From UHGV virus genome UHGV-0170560: a DNA stretch of 39,563 nucleotides; one strand, given 5' to 3'. This document shows, in pieces, positions 3,316 through 35,806 of this stretch. Numbering within the stretch: position 1 is the stretch's first letter; the number at the start of each line of letters is the position of its first letter. Origin of the DNA: a virus. The notes under the pieces are model-generated. The model was given only the letters and a program-made list of their open reading frames with translations, was not told the DNA's origin and did not search any database. A program made the position numbers and the translations under genes.

Positions 3316-5901
3316 TTACATCTGGTTATTAATTTTCATTTCAATATTTTTAATGCGCTCAACCAATCCTCGCATAATGAAACGATCAAGTTCTTGATCG
3401 CGGAATTGCCACAAATCTCCTGCTTTCTTAACTAATTTTTTTTCACCAGTATTCACAGGAACAATGAATTTTTCACCATTTTGATCCGTAATTAACTCAT
3501 CTTTAATGACATCTTCATATACATCATCCCATTTGTCATACCCTATAAATCCATAATCTCGCCAGTCCAGGCCCTCATCCTCTAAAACAGCAATAACTGC
3601 CTGAACAGTGGTGCCAGAGTGCAACCTTTTAGAATCATCATCAATCCATGTCCAGAAACCTAGCAGATCAGCCACTTTAATTGCTGCATTAATTTCAGAT
3701 TTGGTGAATCCGCGAATCGGGTCTTTAAGACGACCATCTGAACTTGACTGGGTTCCTCCGGCAAAATAACCAATGTTATATCGTAGTGATGCGCTACCTA
3801 TATTTGAAGTGGCATCAGCTCCAGGAGTGATTCCCCCTGATGTTGCTATTTGCATTGCTGGAGTAGATCCAGACCCATCAGGTCTGAACTGTAATTGACC
3901 TACACTGTTGTATTGTGTTCTCATGAACCAAGATGTAGCATTGCCATTACTGAGCAGGCCAAGAATAGCATCAGAACCAGATGGAGCCGATACAGTGTAC
4001 ATTCCTGTCTTAGTGAGTGACGTCATGGTTTTTCCATCCTTGCTGACCAATAGTCTGTCGGAGCTTGCATCCATCATCACTTTCCATCCTGTAGACCCAT
4101 CAGCAGCATTCTTCGTAAACTGAATTGATGCGTCACCAATATTCCCATCAGAGCCAAGAATTGCAACGGTATAACCGCCTGCTGGGTCTTTACCCACAAC
4201 TCCAAATCTACCGTTTAGCGGATCGCCTGAAACTATTATTTTTACAGGAATCACTCCGGCAAAATTGTCATTAAATATCTGAGAAATATAATTCATGCGC
4301 ATGCCATAAAAACTAACACCTCTCTTTACATTCTCAGAACCAATAAAAGTCGGAATATCTGAATTTGTAATACCATAAGGTGATTGCTCTACCACACCAC
4401 CATAAAACTGGATGTTGGATGCGTGATCAAATTCTAATGCATGATTAGCTCTGGTTCTAAACTCACAGCCATAAAAGTAATGCCCATTTATTTCAGCGGA
4501 TGTCGCATTAACATCACCATCTATATAAAGGCATCGCCATGTGTTTGCGCTAGAGTAATAAGAAACAAGCTCTTCATGAGACATTGATGCGCGACTGTGG
4601 TGATCAAGGGTATAAATACCACATTTATCTACTCTAGTTCCGCTGAGACCATAACTTGCAGGCCCAGTGTTTGAACCAAGAATTGCTAAACCGACTCGCC
4701 CCATAGTTGACCCACCAGTAATGGTATTGTAATCAGGGTCATCGTTTCCTTGCTTTGACTGAATTATTGTACCTGCTTTTGAAAAGTATCCGAATACACA
4801 AACATCCTCCTGAAGATTTCTTGCAGAGTCATCGTAATAAACCCCACACTCATAATCTGCACGTTGGTCTTCATCAGGTTTTGTGTGATTACCGATGGAA
4901 TCATAACAAATCATGTCTTGAACCACGGCAATGCCTTTAAGGACAGATCCACTTGAACCATATTCTGGAGAAAGAACTCTCACGCAATATCGAACACTTG
5001 CGAAATGATCGTCTCTGTTATCTGTAGTAGCTATCTTTGTTCCTGCTCCAGAAAATATAAACGTAGCACCAGGCATATTTTCTTTTCTACCTTCAGCAAG
5101 AAAGAATTTGTCATCATCAGTACCAAATCCAAGAACAGGAGAACCATTACCAATGAATCGAAAATCACCAGGTATTTCTATACCATCAGAGAATCGATAA
5201 ACCCCATCAGGAACAAAAAAAGTTTTCTTTCCAGATGCAAGCAAAGCCTGCCACTGCGTTAAGTTGTCCGTTTTATAGTCACCTTTTAATCCAAAATCGG
5301 TTATGCTGACTGTATCTCGCATCTTATCCTGGAACGTTCGATATATCGCACCAGAACCATACTGAATAAACCAACCAAAACCACCAACAACTCCGGCGAT
5401 TGCAGCATCAACATAATTACGCATTGAGCGATTATTTACAGCATCCTGCTCAAGTGATGGATCTGCAAGGTTAGAAATTCTGTTTTGCTTTGCATCGTAA
5501 TATTTTGCAAGCAAAGATGGTTTCATCAATGCACGTCTGAACCACCCAAAACATTGCTGGATCAGCATCGTCAGGTAGTCAAAAGCATCTTCATGCACTT
5601 CGGGGAAAAATTTTCCCTGATTGCGAAGGTCTGTCTCCTGCACTACATCAAGCACACGATCTATCGTAATTCGCCATCCAGCAGCAAGCGGCGACGGAAG
5701 AACAACAGAACCGCCACTATAAGTGCCCGCCCCAGTTACCGTATAACCGGTATCCAGAACCAATTCTGTTACGTTCCCGTTCAGGTCAGACACCTGAACA
5801 ACCAGGTCGGATTTTTTGAAAATACGGAAGGTATACGGAAATGATGTCGTAGCGCCGTTACCGGTGTATTCGTTGTGGTCAACTTCGGTTGAGACCGTCA
5901 T
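3316..5901 (-). CDS. Tail fibre/tailspike with T7 gp17-like N-terminal adaptor domain and C-terminal intramolecular chaperone (peptidase S74-like) domain
   Basis: 861 aa; N-terminal ~110 aa resemble the T7 gp17 adaptor region by recollection; C-terminal ~140 aa begin with SSDGRLKD (S-D-x-R-x-K autoprocessing motif); central part AT-rich. Confidence 0.8.
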   Translation of the reverse strand: MTVSTEVDHNEYTGNGATTSFPYTFRIFKKSDLVVQVSDLNGNVTELVLDTGYTVTGAGTYSGGSVVLPSPLAAGWRITIDRVLDVVQETDLRNQGKFFPEVHEDAFDYLTMLIQQCFGWFRRALMKPSLLAKYYDAKQNRISNLADPSLEQDAVNNRSMRNYVDAAIAGVVGGFGWFIQYGSGAIYRTFQDKMRDTVSITDFGLKGDYKTDNLTQWQALLASGKKTFFVPDGVYRFSDGIEIPGDFRFIGNGSPVLGFGTDDDKFFLAEGRKENMPGATFIFSGAGTKIATTDNRDDHFASVRYCVRVLSPEYGSSGSVLKGIAVVQDMICYDSIGNHTKPDEDQRADYECGVYYDDSARNLQEDVCVFGYFSKAGTIIQSKQGNDDPDYNTITGGSTMGRVGLAILGSNTGPASYGLSGTRVDKCGIYTLDHHSRASMSHEELVSYYSSANTWRCLYIDGDVNATSAEINGHYFYGCEFRTRANHALEFDHASNIQFYGGVVEQSPYGITNSDIPTFIGSENVKRGVSFYGMRMNYISQIFNDNFAGVIPVKIIVSGDPLNGRFGVVGKDPAGGYTVAILGSDGNIGDASIQFTKNAADGSTGWKVMMDASSDRLLVSKDGKTMTSLTKTGMYTVSAPSGSDAILGLLSNGNATSWFMRTQYNSVGQLQFRPDGSGSTPAMQIATSGGITPGADATSNIGSASLRYNIGYFAGGTQSSSDGRLKDPIRGFTKSEINAAIKVADLLGFWTWIDDDSKRLHSGTTVQAVIAVLEDEGLDWRDYGFIGYDKWDDVYEDVIKDELITDQNGEKFIVPVNTGEKKLVKKAGDLWQFRDQELDRFIMRGLVERIKNIEMKINNQM

Positions 5902-6059
5902 GTTAAATCTCCAGATAGTCGCAGCACCCGTTGCGCCGCATATCTGGTTATTCTATTACCTGAAAAACCACATATGGATAGATAACCCATAAATACGAAA
6001 AGATATTACCTTTCAGGTGATTTGCAAAACGTGCTGGATAGCAAACAAATTATTTGATA

Positions 6060-6075
6060 CTGTATATTTATACAG
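6060..6075 (+). promoter_or_regulatory. LexA (SOS) box
   Basis: CTGTATATTTATACAG = CTGT-N8-ACAG with AT-rich spacer, flanked TA..TT, about 20 nt upstream of the 6097 start codon. Confidence 0.65.
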
Positions 6076-6096
6076 TTATTGCATGGAGAAGATAAG

Positions 6097-6354
6097 ATGC
6101 AGCAGTATCACTATCCACTGGAAGACGGATTTACCGAAAGGATTCACACGCCGGGAGGCGTCAGATCACTGGTGGAGGGATCGCACTTGATGAAATTACT
6201 CCGGGATCTCGATAAGGATGGATTTAATGTCGATGGCCCACTTGCCGAACTGACTGCACTGATTAACTACGTCACCAGCTCACAGATGTCTATGCGGGAT
6301 CTGCAAACACATCTCGACTATTGTGCCGAACAATTACGAAAACAAACCAGATAA
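6097..6354 (+). CDS. Small protein paralogous to the C-terminal domain of the downstream antirepressor
   Basis: 85 aa from ATG with GGAGAA RBS (track ORF begins at an upstream TTG); aligns with the last ~65 aa of the 6670..7380 protein (shared pattern IH.P.GV..L.E.S.LM.LL..L..DG..V.G..AELT....Y.......RD.QTH..Y). Confidence 0.6.
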   Translation: MQQYHYPLEDGFTERIHTPGGVRSLVEGSHLMKLLRDLDKDGFNVDGPLAELTALINYVTSSQMSMRDLQTHLDYCAEQLRKQTR

Positions 6355-6490
6355 GGTTTGCAATTACCAAGTGGAGTGCTTATATTTACCTTTGAGGTGA
6401 ATTTACATCGCACTCCTCTTATGCCATAGTAATCGGGCACTGGCAAAATCCAGTGCCGGGATTGGCGTCCCGGGTTACTAAGTGGCGCAT

Positions 6491-6514
6491 ACCACGCCAG
6501 ACGTGGTTTTTTTA
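6491..6514 (+). terminator. Rho-independent terminator-like hairpin
   Basis: Stem ACCACG/CGTGGT with loop CCAGA followed by TTTTTTT. Confidence 0.6.
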
Positions 6515-6669
6515 TGCGTTAAGCACAGCTATATCCGAATTATGGTGGGCTGGGCAGGGGTCCGAAAGGACGCCGGTACCACTTAGGCCGGTACGCCAAC
6601 CTTGTCCAGTTCACCACCAGTAATTGGCGTTGCGGTGGTGATTAAAATCACTAAGTGGAGATAACCACC

Positions 6670-7380
6670 ATGGCTAATGCTCAAACTGCCATCTTCAAAT
6701 TTGAATCTGTTAACCCTATCCGTTCCATCATTATCGATGGCCAACCATGGTTTGTAGCCCAAGACGTTTGTAGTGCGCTGCGTATCCAAAACGTCACCCA
6801 AGCACTTGAAAAACTGGATGATGATGAAAGGTCTATGTTCAACATAGGGCATGAACATCGTGCAATTTTTGACAGCCGAGTAAAAGAGATCAACATCATC
6901 TCCGAGTCAGGCCTCTACACACTGATCCTCCGCTGCCGCGACGCAGTGACACCAGGCACTATCCCCTACCGCTTTCGTAAATGGGTTACAGGTGAGGTTC
7001 TTCCTCAGATCCGCCGCACCGGAAGTTACATTAAAAACTCGCTCCCGCAGGAAGAACGCATAAAGATGGTTGCCGACCAGGTAGCCAACGCCACGGCGTC
7101 AGCAGTAATGCAGGCGATGAAGATAGAGAACAAAACCTACAGCGCCCCGCTGCAGCCCGGCTACCGCAGCCTGATTCACTCGCCGTCTGGTGTTCTCGGC
7201 CTGACGGAGAACTCACTGCTGATGAATCTGCTGAACCAGTTACAGGACGACGGGCACGACGTATCGGGCGCGGCGGCGGAGCTGACCACCATGTTCTGCT
7301 ACATCGTCGGTGTGAGTAAATGCCTGCGTGATATCCAGACCCACGCGGAATACATCAACGACAAGGCAGGGTTCTTCTGA
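6670..7380 (+). CDS. Antirepressor (Bro-N domain protein)
   Basis: 236 aa from ATG preceded by GGAG; N-terminal Bro-N hallmarks (WFVAQDVCSAL, ISESGLYTLIL, FRKWVTGEVLPQIRRTGSY). Confidence 0.8.
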   Translation: MANAQTAIFKFESVNPIRSIIIDGQPWFVAQDVCSALRIQNVTQALEKLDDDERSMFNIGHEHRAIFDSRVKEINIISESGLYTLILRCRDAVTPGTIPYRFRKWVTGEVLPQIRRTGSYIKNSLPQEERIKMVADQVANATASAVMQAMKIENKTYSAPLQPGYRSLIHSPSGVLGLTENSLLMNLLNQLQDDGHDVSGAAAELTTMFCYIVGVSKCLRDIQTHAEYINDKAGFF

Positions 7381-7504
7381 CGGGCGGCGGCACAGGGATG
7401 TGCCTTTAAATAATTCTGTACGATTGCAGACAGGGGGGTGAATAGAGTACTATTACCTTACGGGTGATCCATAGCGATTAGGCACCGATACAGGAGGAGC
7501 CCAC

Positions 7505-7537
7505 ATGAGAAAATTTGACGAGTACGAAGGCGTTTAA
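7505..7537 (+). CDS. Possible 10-codon leader peptide (MRKFDEYEGV)
   Basis: Strong RBS CAGGAGGAG 5-8 nt upstream; located between an operator-like palindrome and a terminator hairpin; too short to call confidently. Confidence 0.25.
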   Translation: MRKFDEYEGV

Positions 7538-7555
7538 CATTCGGATAGTTTAATG

Positions 7556-7579
7556 ACGGGGCCATTAGGCCCCGTTTTC
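7556..7579 (+). terminator. Rho-independent terminator / possible attenuator
   Basis: Stem ACGGGGCC/GGCCCCGT with loop ATTA followed by TTTT; immediately upstream of the 7597 gene. Confidence 0.6.
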
Positions 7580-7596
7580 ATGTCTGGAGACAGTTT

Positions 7597-8136
7597 GTGT
7601 TAAGTGAAGAAATGCAATTTGCCATGGCTGTGGCTCAAATCGTAAGTGCAGTCGCGGTTTCGCTTGGCTTGTTCATAGCTATCGCTACTATTATTTATAA
7701 TGTAAATACAGCGAGAAAAGTACACACTTCAGTATTCCTTGGTGAAAGCAGGTTTGATGTAGATTATAAGAAAGGCCTATCTACTATGCGCCGCATTCAC
7801 GAATCGAACAAATCATTCCGCTCTTATATGTATCCAAGCAATGGGCAGGCTGATCTTACGGATGAAGAAAAGATAGAGAAGAGAGAAATAATTTACTGTC
7901 TAGGTTTCTACGAACGCATGGCTGTGAGCGTGAAGCGGAAAACTTATGATGAGACCATGATTAAGGAAGTATTTTACAGCTCCGTTGTAAATAACTATCA
8001 GATTGCGCTACCTCTTATACAAGCTATTAGAGAAAAAGAAAACATAAACACATATTTTAAAGAATATGAATGGTTGGCAACACGATGGAAGGATTGTCCA
8101 TTGAAGGATAAATCCCCATGGTACAAGTTTTGGTAA
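7597..8136 (+). CDS. Membrane-anchored accessory protein; candidate superinfection-exclusion/defence protein
   Basis: 179 aa, GTG start with GGAG RBS; N-terminal TM helix; markedly AT-rich relative to the structural genes; position matches the P22 immI/sieA neighbourhood next to the tailspike. Confidence 0.55.
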   Translation: MLSEEMQFAMAVAQIVSAVAVSLGLFIAIATIIYNVNTARKVHTSVFLGESRFDVDYKKGLSTMRRIHESNKSFRSYMYPSNGQADLTDEEKIEKREIIYCLGFYERMAVSVKRKTYDETMIKEVFYSSVVNNYQIALPLIQAIREKENINTYFKEYEWLATRWKDCPLKDKSPWYKFW

Positions 8137-8158
8137 GCCCGCAGCGCGGGCTTTTTTG
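8137..8158 (+). terminator. Rho-independent terminator
   Basis: Stem GCCCGC/GCGGGC with loop AGC followed by TTTTTT. Confidence 0.75.
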
Positions 8159-8229
8159 TGGACGAAACAAAAGTCAGTGCTACACTCATTGACGCCACAT
8201 TGAGGTGGCTTATAGATGGAAATTTCACA

Positions 8230-8391
8230 ATGAAAAAAGCATTTGCTGCACTGTTCGTTTTGTTGTCTCTGGTAGCTTCAACTCAGGCCTTTGCCGGTCG
8301 TTGTCAGCACGACAGCGATACTGCCGCTGACGGCTCCCGCTGCGGTGGGCGTTCTGCGGATTCCCGCCCGGGCGGCGGTGGCATTCGTTAA
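8230..8391 (+). CDS. Small secreted peptide, function unknown
   Basis: 53 aa from internal ATG; clean Sec signal MKKAFAALFVLLSLVASTQAFA; two Cys in the ~31-aa mature part. Confidence 0.45.
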   Translation: MKKAFAALFVLLSLVASTQAFAGRCQHDSDTAADGSRCGGRSADSRPGGGGIR

Positions 8392-8413
8392 AAACAAGGC
8401 CGCGAAAGCGGCC
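8391..8413 (-). terminator. Rho-independent terminator for the minus-strand virion operon
   Basis: Stem GGCCGC/GCGGCC with loop GAAA; on the minus strand it is followed by a T-run. Confidence 0.6.
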
Positions 8414-8422
8414 TGTGACATG

Positions 8423-8719
8423 TCACGTTCCTTTTCTGAATGATAGCCGTTCGAAAAATGATGACATTCCACCGCAGACAATAGCAAAGATGATCCCACC
8501 AAAGAAGAGAAGGCCAGCCTGCCACCACTCCCACCGCCATACATCCACAGCACCAACCATACCAACAATCGCTCCAACAAATGGAATATAGCTCACGATG
8601 AAAGCAATGGGGGCTGCAATTATCCAGTGCAATCCCCACCATGATTCAAGCCCAGCCATAATTGCTGCCAACTGAAAAAGGCCAACGACGATATAAACAA
8701 TGAATCCTATCGCTTGCAT
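8423..8719 (-). CDS. Small integral membrane protein
   Basis: 98 aa, 3 hydrophobic helices, GGTG RBS; last gene of the minus-strand virion operon. Confidence 0.55.
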   Translation of the reverse strand: MQAIGFIVYIVVGLFQLAAIMAGLESWWGLHWIIAAPIAFIVSYIPFVGAIVGMVGAVDVWRWEWWQAGLLFFGGIIFAIVCGGMSSFFERLSFRKGT

Positions 8720-8914: not shown

Positions 8915-11389
8915 TTATTGCGGAGTGACATCCTGAGGTCGCCACCAGTATGTCTGATTAAACTCTTTCTTCGAACGTTGCTCCATTTTACGCAAATAGC
9001 CTGGTGAAAAATACTCCTGCATCTGGTTAAAGATCATATGATCGAGAGCCGCCTTTAAGTACCAGAGATTCGCACCTGGCATCAAACCTTTCCCCAGCTT
9101 CACCAGATCACCACCAGTCTGCTCACTCTTCCCTTCCACAGCATTTAACGGTATGCCCTGAGCAATCTTCACTACGTCATCAACCAGACCAGCTACCGGG
9201 CCAAGCATCGACGCCAGCGCGCCGCTTCCGTACCTAGTGTGATCTGACAATAAAAAGTCACCGTAAAGGCCAAGGCCACCACCTTTCAGTAGAGCACCAA
9301 GCCAGAATTTTGCGGCACCTTCTCCTGTCATCTCTCGAGGATTACGACCAGACGCAAGGTCGTTAAGTTGCTGCGACAAAGCGCCAAGAATGGTCGTACT
9401 GGCAATAAACGTCGCAATATATGCCGCACGCCCACCAGCAGACGGCATACTCATAGCGCGTGACCAGTGACGCATAACAACCGAGATAGGGAACGATTTA
9501 AACAGGAAAACACTTCTCGTTAATTCACCTTTCCATGTTCCACGCTGAATACCAGAACCGGTTATCAGTTGCTCACGTGCTCCCGGTGTAATAATAGCCA
9601 TATCAACTTCTTCAGTTACGGCACCGAGCAGTTTACGCATTGCCTCAAATTTCACTCGTTCAGGCTCACCAAGATGTTTAACTGCTGAATCAGGGATACG
9701 CATAATGCTTTCCGGTGTCAGCATCGTATTATTACCGTTCCCCCAGTCCTCCTGTTGCGCCAGCTTCCATACGCTCCAGTCTGTGTCAGTAATCCCTTTG
9801 CTTTTCAGGATACGAAAATCAGAGTCATCGAGGCTACGAAGGTCTGGTGTCCGTGACACTACTTCTCCCAGGCTTCCCATCATGGTTACGCCATAGGCGC
9901 GCTTGTGCGCATCTGACCATGCTGTAAGCCCACTGGCACGCATTACCGCCGTTGCCGCCCAACGAGACACAGACGGCCCCATATTATCCATCGCCCAGCG
10001 GTTAACGCTGCCAAGTAGAGATTCCATCGCCAGGCCAGCGCGGCGCGCCCGCGCAAGCTCAGTACGGTTCGTTGGGTCCATAGCTTCAAGCTGGTTGCGA
10101 AATAACTGGTTCATTGGAAGGTTGGTAACCTTCGCAGACAGATACATGGTTCCAAGATCAGAGAACGATGACAGCAACGCGGATCCGAGTCTGCTGGCAA
10201 CCAGCCAGTTGCGGATATTGTCAGACCATCGCGCGATGTGCGGATTCGCTACAGGCTGTGTTTTTCCGGAAATAAAGTTGTACAGATTCTCTGTGTTGTT
10301 CGCCAGCCGCTCGACTTTACCGGTTTTACTCGGGTTAGCTGTTGCCGTTTCTGCCTTAACCTGATCAAGAAGGGAGCGGAAAACATGATCGGGGTTTGGG
10401 CCATATGTTTCCACCAGCGCAATATCTTTACTGATACCTTCCAGGTGACCGACCATGATTTCCCATAGAGAGCGATCGCCATAAAGTTGCTGATATTGCA
10501 GATAGGAATCTGCATCTTTGAAATGTATCTGTCGTGATGCATTACCACGGTTAGCACGTACGCCGGAAATTCGCATTCCGGTATCAGTAAGCTTATTCAG
10601 CCCACCAGTAGCGATCGTGTTATAAGCCTCTCCAAGAAATGCAGACAACTCGGCATCGTTCATCAGTTGTCCATCGGCTCGGGTATAATATTTGCGATCC
10701 AGCTTACCTATAACATCGCTAACCCATTTATCTTTTGATACCGCCCCAACCTTTTCCATAGAATGATGTTGAGGGATCCCCCAGTTTTCGAGATAGCCAA
10801 TGTCCCCACCAGCATCATTAAACCGGCGGCGCAGTAGATCTGTCACTTCTCTCCACGCCTTAGCACCTTTTCTTGCTTTAGCATTGCCAGTATTTTGCCC
10901 TCGCATTTCATATACCAGGTCACGCACGCCCGCTTCATCTTCAAACAGGCCAAAAAAGCGAGGATCAACTGCTTCAAATGCCTCCTGCAATTGACTCAAT
11001 GCATAATCACGAGTGGCTTTTGTTCTGGATTCAACAGAGAGGAAATTCGATTTACCGTCTGCATTAAAAGCAATAGTACGGTTAAGAGCGCCAAGTTTCC
11101 CATCAGCCCCTTGATAGCTATTGATAAATTTATCCAATCTCTGACGTGCGGCTATAGTGAGGGCCACACGACGTTTCTTTAATGCCGCTTCTCGCTGTAA
11201 TTCTTCAGATGCCAATTGTGCTGCACGATACAACCGTTCTGATTCGGAAAGTTGTCGCCACGACATCGGGTCATCACGAGCAATGGAGCGCATATTTCGA
11301 TAAATGCGGTCTTCAATGTTCTGTATTTCTCGCGCCGTTAACGTGCGCTGCGCCGCCTGCTGGACCGCTTGTATACATTCCTGTCTCAT
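8915..11389 (-). CDS. Internal virion/ejection protein (T7 gp16-like position)
   Basis: 824 aa; translationally coupled within the long minus-strand virion operon. Confidence 0.65.
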   Translation of the reverse strand: MRQECIQAVQQAAQRTLTAREIQNIEDRIYRNMRSIARDDPMSWRQLSESERLYRAAQLASEELQREAALKKRRVALTIAARQRLDKFINSYQGADGKLGALNRTIAFNADGKSNFLSVESRTKATRDYALSQLQEAFEAVDPRFFGLFEDEAGVRDLVYEMRGQNTGNAKARKGAKAWREVTDLLRRRFNDAGGDIGYLENWGIPQHHSMEKVGAVSKDKWVSDVIGKLDRKYYTRADGQLMNDAELSAFLGEAYNTIATGGLNKLTDTGMRISGVRANRGNASRQIHFKDADSYLQYQQLYGDRSLWEIMVGHLEGISKDIALVETYGPNPDHVFRSLLDQVKAETATANPSKTGKVERLANNTENLYNFISGKTQPVANPHIARWSDNIRNWLVASRLGSALLSSFSDLGTMYLSAKVTNLPMNQLFRNQLEAMDPTNRTELARARRAGLAMESLLGSVNRWAMDNMGPSVSRWAATAVMRASGLTAWSDAHKRAYGVTMMGSLGEVVSRTPDLRSLDDSDFRILKSKGITDTDWSVWKLAQQEDWGNGNNTMLTPESIMRIPDSAVKHLGEPERVKFEAMRKLLGAVTEEVDMAIITPGAREQLITGSGIQRGTWKGELTRSVFLFKSFPISVVMRHWSRAMSMPSAGGRAAYIATFIASTTILGALSQQLNDLASGRNPREMTGEGAAKFWLGALLKGGGLGLYGDFLLSDHTRYGSGALASMLGPVAGLVDDVVKIAQGIPLNAVEGKSEQTGGDLVKLGKGLMPGANLWYLKAALDHMIFNQMQEYFSPGYLRKMEQRSKKEFNQTYWWRPQDVTPQ

Positions 11390-25320: not shown

Positions 25321-25397
25321 GTGGCATTAGCTCAGTTGGACAGAGCAACCGCCTTCTAAGCGGTTGGCCGCAGGTTCGAATCCTGCATGCCACGCCA
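25321..25397 (+). tRNA. tRNA-Arg (anticodon UCU), CCA encoded
   Basis: Hand-folded cloverleaf: acceptor GTGGCAT/ATGCCAC, D-stem GCTC/GAGC, anticodon stem ACCGC/GCGGT with loop CTTCTAA, T-stem GCAGG/CCTGC with TTCGAAT loop; argU-like. Confidence 0.9.
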
Positions 25398-25481: not shown

Positions 25482-25559
25482 ACAGCAGGACGCCATTGCG
25501 ATGACTTCATGCTGTAAACCAGTACAGCCACGGAAGGCATAACTCATTGCTTCCAGTTC

Positions 25560-35103: not shown

Positions 35104-35166
35104 TCACCCATAAGGTAACAAAAATCAAGGATAGTTACCTATGGGGTGCATTTACCTGTTGGGTAA
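35104..35166. promoter_or_regulatory. Three adjacent operator-like palindromes in the repressor/cro intergenic region
   Basis: TCACC-CATAA-GGTAA (35104-35118), TTACC-TATGG-GGTGC (35135-35149), TTACC-TGTTG-GGTAA (35152-35166). Confidence 0.6.
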
Positions 35167-35221: not shown

Positions 35222-35806
35222 ATGAAAAGTATCCAGGACGTCCGCAGGCAAAATCTCAACGACTTGATCGACCGTGAATTCAATGGTGTTCAGACGCGGA
35301 TGGCAGAAAAACTTGGAACTCAGGCAAATCTGGTAAACCGCTGGGCTCTTGGCAAGAAGGTTATCGGCGACCAGGTTGCGCGAAAAATTGAAGCTGCCGC
35401 CAATAAACCACGTAACTGGCTTGATATCGATCGCTCGCTTTCTCAGGAAGGTTTTCAGCCTGTCGGCCCAAGCGACATTGGTCAGCTGGCGGCTCACAAC
35501 CTGGAACGCTGGATGAGCGAAAGCCGCGACCTTTCAACACAGGGAAAACTTCACCGCGCATCCGGCGTCGCCCAGGTGACAATCAGCCGCCTGTTAAACA
35601 ATGAGGTCAGCGTTTCCATTTCCACCCTGGAGAATGTTGCATCTGCATTCGGGCGTCACGGATATGAATTACTGATTCACCCGCACGACCCCGCGACTAT
35701 CAACTATGACCGCTCGCGCTACGCATTGTTACCTGAAACAGAGAAGGCAAAGATCGAAAGTTACATTGAATTTGTCATCAACCAGAACGAAAAAAGCAAA
35801 CAATAA
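35222..35806 (+). CDS. CI-like repressor without recognisable S24 autocleavage domain
   Basis: 194 aa with two HTH-like segments; no Ser/Lys peptidase-type C-terminal motifs recognised. Confidence 0.6.
   Translation: MKSIQDVRRQNLNDLIDREFNGVQTRMAEKLGTQANLVNRWALGKKVIGDQVARKIEAAANKPRNWLDIDRSLSQEGFQPVGPSDIGQLAAHNLERWMSESRDLSTQGKLHRASGVAQVTISRLLNNEVSVSISTLENVASAFGRHGYELLIHPHDPATINYDRSRYALLPETEKAKIESYIEFVINQNEKSKQ

Follow-up and report, generated by a model that had tools for sequence, protein, structure and literature searches.

The window, that is, the whole 39,563-nucleotide stretch of viral DNA analysed here, is the genome, complete or nearly so, of an epsilon15/phiV10-like temperate podovirus of the genus Uetakevirus. 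Over positions 5900-7450 it shares 98.8% identity with Escherichia phage HEMP4 and 92-94% with the phages TL-2011b, ZX5, and phiV10. Two neighbouring genes in this region, ant and the gene of a Bro-N fusion protein, encode products that share a domain, and the locus has the following features:

3316-5901, minus strand: tailspike gene, which adjoins ant and is divergent from it
6006-6020, no strand: 15-bp palindrome TTACC-N5-GGTGA, a putative Rep operator, between the tailspike gene and ant
6060-6075, plus strand: LexA (SOS) box CTGTATATTTATACAG, 21 nt 5' of the ant start codon, holding a TATATT -10-like hexamer (6063-6068)
6097-6354, plus strand: ant, encoding the predicted stand-alone antirepressor Ant (85 aa), with the SD sequence GGAG at 6085-6088
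6670-7380, plus strand: gene of the putative Bro-N/Ant-domain fusion antirepressor (236 aa), assigned from Pfam, a PDB match, and an AF2 model
6718-7005, plus strand: Bro-N domain, residues 17-112 of the fusion (PF02498, E=1e-19, 71.4 bits against a cut-off of 25.6)
7132-7365, plus strand: Ant-like domain, residues 155-232 of the fusion (match to 5d50_E)
8915-11389, minus strand: large virion protein gene, the other flank of the ant/Bro-N locus

The ORF list opens the small reading frame at a TTG codon (6079..6354). The start was placed at ATG 6097, because this codon is preceded by the GGAG of the SD and because the resulting product of 85 residues fits the 86-residue Ant of phage SPC32H. A search of PDB sequences with this protein (phmmer) returned a single match, 5d50_E, annotated as 'Anti-repressor protein' (86 aa, E=1.4e-46), in which residues 2-84 align with residues 3-85, thus covering the whole length. 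The protein is 85-87% identical to SPC32H Ant over its full length and is assigned to phrog_450. Its exact sequence, present on at least 1000 contigs, is named 'Anti-repressor protein' in UniRef; most NCBI records call it 'hypothetical protein'. The small ORF is kept in 35 phage records at 60-100% amino-acid identity and, at full length, in 147 protein clusters, so it stands up well to comparison with related genomes. The Bro-N domain (PF02498) is absent from the 85-residue protein, which is therefore not a member of the Bro-N antirepressor family. No Pfam or NCBIfam model was found for the Ant domain, and in this respect its earlier description as uncharacterised is right; it is wrong in that the structure of Ant has been solved (5D50) and that UniRef already names the sequence. 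The sole Pfam match of the small protein, DUF724 at 17 bits, lies far under the cut-off and was dismissed.

In SPC32H, a Salmonella phage of the same genus, ant (SPC32H_020, annotated as such) occupies the same slot as in the window, divergent from the tailspike gene. The SPC32H Ant system was reportedly described by Kim & Ryu in J Virol in 2013 and by Kim et al. in PNAS in 2016. Secondary descriptions present SPC32H Ant as an antirepressor under SOS/LexA control, the tetramer of which splits the DNA-binding Rep tetramer into two dimers and in this way brings about the lytic switch. The PDB entry 5D50 contains SPC32H Ant (chains E-H) crystallised with the repressor Rep (chain A, 'Repressor').

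The window has three CTGT-N8-ACAG sites against 0.49 expected, and the LexA box upstream of ant is one of them. The 20-nt consensus of LexA boxes is TACTGTATATATATACAGTA, and the box with its flanks agrees with this generally known sequence at 18 of 20 positions. Both the predicted box and the ribosome-binding site of ant are kept in all five aligned phages (the window, SPC32H, Tyrion, Kp4865-1, and PAS61), which bears out the original prediction in placing the small gene directly under a LexA box. No sigma-70 promoter matching at 9/12 positions or better was detected near the box. The candidate TTGATA-17-TATTGC was rejected as the ant promoter, since a transcript starting from it would lose the SD; a transcription start from the TATATT within the LexA box is more plausible, albeit unproven. 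In the palindrome at 6006-6020, the half-sites are kept and the spacer is free to vary among five phages.

The window also encodes a homologue of the SPC32H repressor, which lies beside a group of palindromes:

35104-35166, no strand: three TYACC-N5-GGTRM palindromes, putative operators, in the intergenic gap between rep and a cro-like gene
35222-35806, plus strand: rep, encoding the repressor Rep (194 aa; match to 5d50_A 'Repressor', E=3.5e-42; HTH_3)

This Rep is 43-44% identical to SPC32H Rep (53% in the N-terminal and 41% in the C-terminal domain), and PAS61 has the same Rep as the window (99% identity). The TYACC-N5-GGTRM pattern is found 12 times in the window, where 0.3 would be expected, with three of these sites in the rep-cro gap, and SPC32H has the same palindrome pattern, including the equivalent triplet; these palindromes are putative Rep operators. 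Judged by sequence, the ORF at 6097-6354 is the orthologue of SPC32H Ant and would be an antirepressor itself, not an accessory to one, as argued for by the 5d50_E match, the same slot, the shared LexA box, and the Rep homologue in the window. SPC32H Ant is thus alike in length, sequence, locus, LexA box, and presumptive partner; the window differs from it in that ant is separated from its own terminator by a 2-kb insertion and in the low conservation of Rep. Since Ant is 85-87% identical between the two phages while Rep is just 43-44% identical, cognate binding of Ant to Rep in the window is extrapolated. Among other known proteins, Tum of coliphage 186 and GfoA/GfhA of the Gifsy prophages are, according to secondary sources, LexA-repressed small antirepressors that bind and inactivate a non-cleavable repressor. 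They share the LexA logic of ant as a functional analogy only; the Pfam and PHROG searches with the small protein showed no family in common with them.

The original prediction had started from a resemblance between the small protein and the C-terminus of the Bro-N antirepressor, and this resemblance is real. BLASTP aligns residues 2-75 of the 85-residue protein with residues 155-228 of the 236-residue protein, ungapped and with 32 identities in 74 positions (43%, E=3e-16). The Smith-Waterman score of 164 lies far above the scores of 2000 shuffles (26.7 +/- 4.4, maximum 61; z about 31), a control that had been set beforehand. Searches of PDB sequences lead from either protein to 5d50_E: the small one matches it with E=1.4e-46, and the Bro-N protein, over its residues 155-231, with E=1.6e-13. 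At the nucleotide level, the codon-aligned segments are 48% identical, and just 31% at third positions, so the divergence of the two domains is old. A recent duplication as the source of the shared domain is excluded by the third-position identity.

The AF2 model of the Bro-N protein, built from an alignment of 36 sequences (pLDDT 36.7 with a single sequence), has a pLDDT of 77 overall and above 85 in the C-domain. Its N-terminal domain adopts a Bro-N / SKI-Dachshund-like fold, and a helical linker joins the Bro-N domain to the Ant-like domain. In a Foldseek comparison of the model with the PDB, the top match was again 5d50_E (target-normalised TM 0.83, rmsd 1.2 A, 67 columns, 39% identity). 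The positions common to the free and fused forms, in Ant numbering, are Y4, P7, G21, L25, S29, L34, L35, D41, G42, E51, Y58, and H72. The Bro-N protein is most likely a second, modular antirepressor, and its homology to Ant suggests that its C-terminal domain contacts the same Rep. Its closest known counterparts are the 'anti-repressor' ORF4 of E. coli phage vB_EcoP_ZX5 (ZX5) and p23 of phiV10; ORF4 is 80% identical to the protein of the window and agrees with it in architecture and position. When ORF4 was overexpressed in ZX5, the lysogen titre fell from 1e9 to 1e6 and repressor transcription by 75% (PMC9782041). The same paper makes no mention of the small Ant, LexA, SPC32H, the C4/IsrK RNAs, or the likeness between SPC32H Ant and the C-domain (PMC9782041). 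The Bro-N gene is frameshifted in phiV10 and missing from PAS61 despite the same Rep, which indicates that the fusion is dispensable.

An exhaustive profile search of 1.84 billion representatives found just 58 clusters with the Ant domain, mostly as free-standing proteins of 80-95 residues. In the longer members, the domain is C-terminal and lies behind one of three N-terminal domains that are characteristic of phage antirepressors, Bro-N (P0124, P0144, P0174), AntA (P0122), or Rha (P0131, P0173); the AntA protein carries a C-domain nearly identical to that of the window, and the Bro-N halves of the fusion proteins are also mosaic. Read most simply, the Ant domain would be a repressor-binding effector module that usually occurs alone and appears to have been fused repeatedly to interchangeable N-terminal modules. 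The derivation implied at the outset, in which the small protein was a free copy of the fused domain, is consequently turned around, since the free form of about 86 residues predominates and fusions are the minority. HEMP4 and TL-2011b each have a third Ant copy; none was found in the window.

The segment downstream of ant contains the Bro-N gene together with a set of RNA elements:

6355-8395, no strand: insertion of 2,041 bp relative to PAS61 and SPC32H (blastn breakpoints), from the ant stop codon to the original terminator of ant
6386-6400, no strand: another TTACC-N5-GGTGA palindrome, immediately next to the -35 of the isrK promoter
6402-6430, plus strand: sigma-70-like promoter TTTACA-17-CATAGT, TG-extended, with a predicted start about 7 nt 3', at the first base of the isrK match (6437)
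6437-6513, plus strand: IsrK-like / c4-a1b1 small RNA (isrK 67.7 bits against a gathering score of 50)
6462-6468, plus strand: a1, TTGGCGT, within the IsrK-like RNA
6478-6485, plus strand: b1, CTAAGTGG, within the IsrK-like RNA
6491-6507 (stem) plus T-run to 6513, plus strand: isrK intrinsic terminator, the end of the IsrK-like RNA
6538-6621, plus strand: C4-type antisense RNA (Rfam C4, 66 bits against a gathering score of 45)
6579-6586, plus strand: b', CCACTTAG, in the C4 loop of the fold
6593-6599, plus strand: a', ACGCCAA, single-stranded in the C4 fold
6624-6672, plus strand: predicted C4 target region in the leader of the Bro-N mRNA, from its complementarity to C4
6624-6630, plus strand: a2, TTGGCGT, complement of C4 a'
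6651-6658, plus strand: b2, CTAAGTGG, overlapping the SD GGAG at 6657-6660
6665-6671, plus strand: CCACCAT, overlapping the Bro-N ATG and complementary to the 5' end of C4
7597-8136: DUF4760 ORF (from Pfam/PHROG matches for the ORFs of the insertion)
8158-8391: ORF of 77 aa, cargo of the insertion
8396-8430, no strand: displaced bidirectional terminator GGCCGC-GAAA-GCGGCC, which lies directly 3' of ant in PAS61 and SPC32H

The boundaries of the insertion are seen directly: homology with PAS61 and SPC32H ends exactly at the ant stop codon (6354) and returns at 8396-8430. To judge by this comparison, the Bro-N gene is a later addition, apparently brought in on the 2-kb insertion. The window, ZX5, phiV10, Tyrion, and Kp4865-1 carry the RNA cassette, whereas SPC32H and PAS61 have neither the cassette nor the Bro-N gene. 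Sequences related to isrK-C4 were found in 253 phage records, most of them from Stx-converting phages, so the cassette itself is common. The small RNA at 6437-6513 scores 44.1 bits with the c4-a1b1 model of Rfam, just under the gathering score of 46.7; Rfam catalogues C4 as RF01695 and c4-a1b1 as RF03163 (Weinberg, 2010; PMC2864571).

The a' (7 nt) and b' (8 nt) elements of C4 are exact complements of a1 and b1 in IsrK and equally of a2 and b2, and the a1/a'/a2 and b1/b'/b2 sets are observed to covary in five phages (the window, ZX5, phiV10, Tyrion, and Kp4865-1). For the a element, the window, ZX5, and phiV10 share TTGGCGT, Tyrion has TTGGTCT, and Kp4865-1 has TTGAGAC. For the b element, the window has CTAAGTGG, ZX5 and phiV10 have CTAAAAGG, and Tyrion and Kp4865-1 have CTACAAAGG, b1 of Tyrion showing a single G-U wobble. 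On comparative grounds, this covariation argues strongly for functional C4 pairings that differ in specificity from phage to phage, as P1 and P7 do.

The immI locus of P1/P7 (c4, icd, ant1/2) has the same order of elements, a1 b1 - c4(a' b') - a2 b2 - antirepressor gene, with a2/b2 at the ribosome-binding site, and there, too, the specificity elements vary between related phages. In contrast to immI, the window has no icd-like leader ORF, so that a2/b2 lie around the SD and ATG of the antirepressor gene itself. No conserved ORF was found from C4 to the ATG of the Bro-N gene, and a reading frame that starts at 6543 ends after 14 codons; an 'ash family protein' ORF, which in ZX5 is annotated across C4 and was considered as an equivalent of icd or orf45, was rejected because it has only 14 codons in the window. 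The antirepressor of the window consists of Bro-N plus the Ant domain, of which Pfam finds Bro-N only; it is likened to that of P1 by the layout of the locus. A second parallel is the isrK-orf45-anrP locus of Gifsy-1, in which a read-through transcript that is silent by itself is translated into an antirepressor-like protein once the short IsrK activates it (Hershko-Shalev, 2016; PMC4825925). The terminator of this IsrK is leaky, and the locus contributes to stationary-phase prophage induction (PMC4825925). Gifsy-1 and the window have in common an IsrK with its own promoter, a downstream RNA complementary to IsrK (in Gifsy-1 the stable STnc1160), and then an RNA-gated antirepressor-like gene. 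They differ in that the window has no conserved coupled upstream ORF of the orf45 type, and AnrP is likened by locus layout, not by sequence.

Taken together, it is very probable that ant encodes an SOS antirepressor acting on Rep and that the Bro-N protein is a second antirepressor with the same effector domain under a separate RNA switch. In the lysogen, host LexA bound to the box at 6060-6075 would hold ant off. DNA damage would remove LexA, and the Ant then made would bind Rep (35222-35806) and inactivate it. As regards the second gene, the a'/b' elements of C4 would pair with a2/b2 at the ribosome-binding site of the Bro-N gene and block its translation, and the IsrK-like RNA could lift this block by offering a1/b1 as a decoy, a sign of control that we infer. 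The balance between C4 as the blocker and IsrK/a1b1 as the decoy would thus set how much of the Bro-N/Ant-domain protein is translated; this protein most likely acts on Rep as well, through its Ant-type domain and with a presumed contribution of its Bro-N domain. Two signals, SOS and the RNA switch, would in this manner converge on one repressor through one type of effector domain. Rep is accordingly the presumed target of both domains.

It is possible, if unlikely, that the two Ant-type domains divide the labour by recognising different repressors; for example, one domain could bind the Rep of the phage itself and the other could bind Rep variants from relatives that are co-resident or superinfected, which would amount to anti-immunity or prophage cross-talk comparable to that of P22, P1, and Gifsy. 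The divergence of the two domains is old (43% amino-acid and 31% third-position identity), and the small Ant has kept 85% identity in phages that share just 44% in Rep. P1-type antirepressors controlled by C4 function in superinfection immunity, and the annotators of phiV10 labelled the protein 'anti-immunity'. Trans-acting antirepressors are documented in Salmonella prophages, according to secondary sources. The identities of the Bro-N C-domain (98/78/52%) roughly track those of Rep (about 100/78/46%; the ZX5 Rep figure is from PMC9782041), but this comparison covers only three or four phage pairs. Moreover, the conserved motif positions are the same in both domains, and the ZX5 orthologue acted on the lysogeny of its own phage (PMC9782041). 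Since the Bro-N fusion is dispensable, its role could be directed at other phages, which speaks against the preferred reading, in which both proteins act on Rep.

Quite unlikely, but of interest for the wiring of the locus, is an SOS cascade in which read-through from ant supplies the a1/b1 decoy RNA, C4 is titrated, and the Bro-N/Ant-domain protein is translated, perhaps to form mixed tetramers with small Ant on Rep. Because the insertion has separated ant from its terminator, LexA-derepressed ant transcripts should carry the a1/b1 decoy; their synthesis would stop at the isrK terminator (6491-6513) or continue past it. In TL-2011b and Kp4865-1, ant and isrK are set apart by an additional 1.1-1.2 kb, so this coupling of the two inputs is not a conserved feature. 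If the cascade did operate, the locus would be a protein-plus-RNA feed-forward switch that arose from an immI-type cassette inserted at the 3' end of an SOS gene.

The role given to the small protein by the original prediction, that of a modulator of the Bro-N antirepressor (a competitor, anti-antirepressor, or co-factor working through mixed oligomers or a shared surface on Rep), is very unlikely. SPC32H Ant is a tetramer according to the secondary descriptions, the 43% identity with a common conserved core makes hetero-oligomers conceivable, and the two genes are adjacent. However, SPC32H, epsilon15, and PAS61 have the small Ant without a Bro-N partner, the SPC32H copy is, in those same descriptions, a characterised SOS-controlled antirepressor, the stand-alone form predominates in the family, and the Bro-N gene was inserted later and is frameshifted in phiV10. 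The small protein does not, therefore, fit as an accessory of the Bro-N protein. The shortness of the small ORF and the 'hypothetical' label of most NCBI records might suggest that it is decaying or has no function, as what was left of a partial duplication of the Bro-N gene, but this is practically untenable given its full-length conservation in 147 clusters and on at least 1000 contigs, its PDB match at 85-87% identity to a protein of solved structure and demonstrated function, its intact SD and LexA box, and a nucleotide divergence that excludes recent duplication.

The small antirepressor, the Bro-N antirepressor, and the RNA families between them are each already known; what appears not to have been described is the way they are combined. 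In the literature that could be searched, neither the identity of the Bro-N C-terminal domain with the Ant domain nor the joint presence of an SOS-wired and a C4/IsrK-wired antirepressor in this lineage has been described. The kind of mechanism is not new, and the value of the finding lies in a useful annotation and a reasonable experimental system. It is mainly corrective, as a protein listed as 'hypothetical protein' by NCBI would be an SOS-controlled antirepressor that decides on induction in a prophage group widespread in E. coli, Salmonella, Enterobacter, and Klebsiella. Through homology to the solved Rep-Ant complex, the C-terminal part of Bro-N, AntA, and Rha 'antirepressors', a common class in which this part had been uncharacterised, is a probable repressor-binding module. 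With an SOS-wired and an RNA-wired antirepressor directed at one repressor, these phages would offer a tractable system for studying how temperate phages integrate DNA damage with other signals.

Everything downstream of ant, the gene of the 85-aa small antirepressor Ant (6097-6354), up to position 8395 is an insertion relative to the related phages PAS61 and SPC32H, and it has pushed the bidirectional terminator of ant (8396-8430) 2 kb away. The Bro-N antirepressor gene (6670-7380) is further cargo of this block (6355-8395), which also holds the following features:

6402-6672, complete RNA cassette like P1 immI and Gifsy-1 IsrK, between ant and the Bro-N gene
7597-8136, DUF4760 ORF (phrog_2284)
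8158-8391, 77-aa ORF (phrog_3117/14503, 'membrane associated')

Since TL-2011b has a YafO toxin in the equivalent position, the insertion site is a variable cargo (moron) site.

The cassette resembles the arrangements of P1 immI and Gifsy-1 IsrK, with a promoter followed by the IsrK/a1b1 RNA, the C4 antisense RNA and then a2/b2 at the Bro-N ribosome-binding site. Across five phages, a1, the C4 element a' and a2 covary three ways, as do b1, b' and b2, and these phages comprise at least three a and at least three b specificities. In ZX5, a CDS labelled 'ash family protein' (2152-2265 of the record, corresponding to about 6543-6587 in the window) sits over the C4 RNA, and its window equivalent is shortened to 14 codons; it is probably a spurious call on a non-coding RNA. 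At the isrK promoter, the inverted repeat GGAGTGC...GCACTCC (6373-6379 and 6410-6416) flanks both the -35 and an operator-like palindrome; the repeat is kept in ZX5 and phiV10, and is not found in Tyrion or Kp4865-1.

Three genes of relatives that include an Ant-type domain:

phiV10 3774-4444, Bro-N/Ant-domain gene, split and annotated as p23 and the 29-aa p22
HEMP4 1603-1968, third gene with a terminal Ant-type domain
TL-2011b 6777-7252, third gene with a terminal Ant-type domain, gp42 'anti-repressor Ant'

Because a frameshift divides the phiV10 gene, the type phage may lack an active fused antirepressor; alternatively, the frameshift may be a sequencing error in the record. The Ant-type domains of the third genes are 73-82% identical to the C-terminal domain of the window's Bro-N protein, with a different N-terminal module, and this third copy is absent from the window.

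Elsewhere in the window, two features lie about 120 bp apart:

25321-25394, tRNA gene (Rfam, 73 bits)
25512-25527, second CTGT-N8-ACAG match, CTGTAAACCAGTACAG

When the E. coli lineage (window) is compared with the Salmonella lineage (SPC32H), Ant is 85% identical, whereas Rep (35222-35806), its supposed binding partner, is only 44% identical. The two identities are not coupled, as the pair SPC32H and Kp4865-1 has 64% for Rep and 60% for Ant. Either Ant reads a conserved surface of Rep, or recombination acts on the ant locus separately from the immunity region.

The 15-bp palindrome TTACC-N5-GGTAA occurs at 12 sites in the window, versus 0.3 expected:

6006, 6386, 7453, 24984, 28254, 32759, 32821, 34767, 35104, 35135, 35152, 35864 (15 bp each)

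Ten of them lie outside every ORF of at least 90 aa. Three cluster in the gap that separates rep from the divergent cro-like gene, a single one lies upstream of ant, and another adjoins the -35 of the isrK promoter. SPC32H also has 12 sites, with the same motif and layout, despite the identity of only 44% for its Rep. The palindrome is probably the operator of Rep, which would therefore also contact the ant and isrK promoters.
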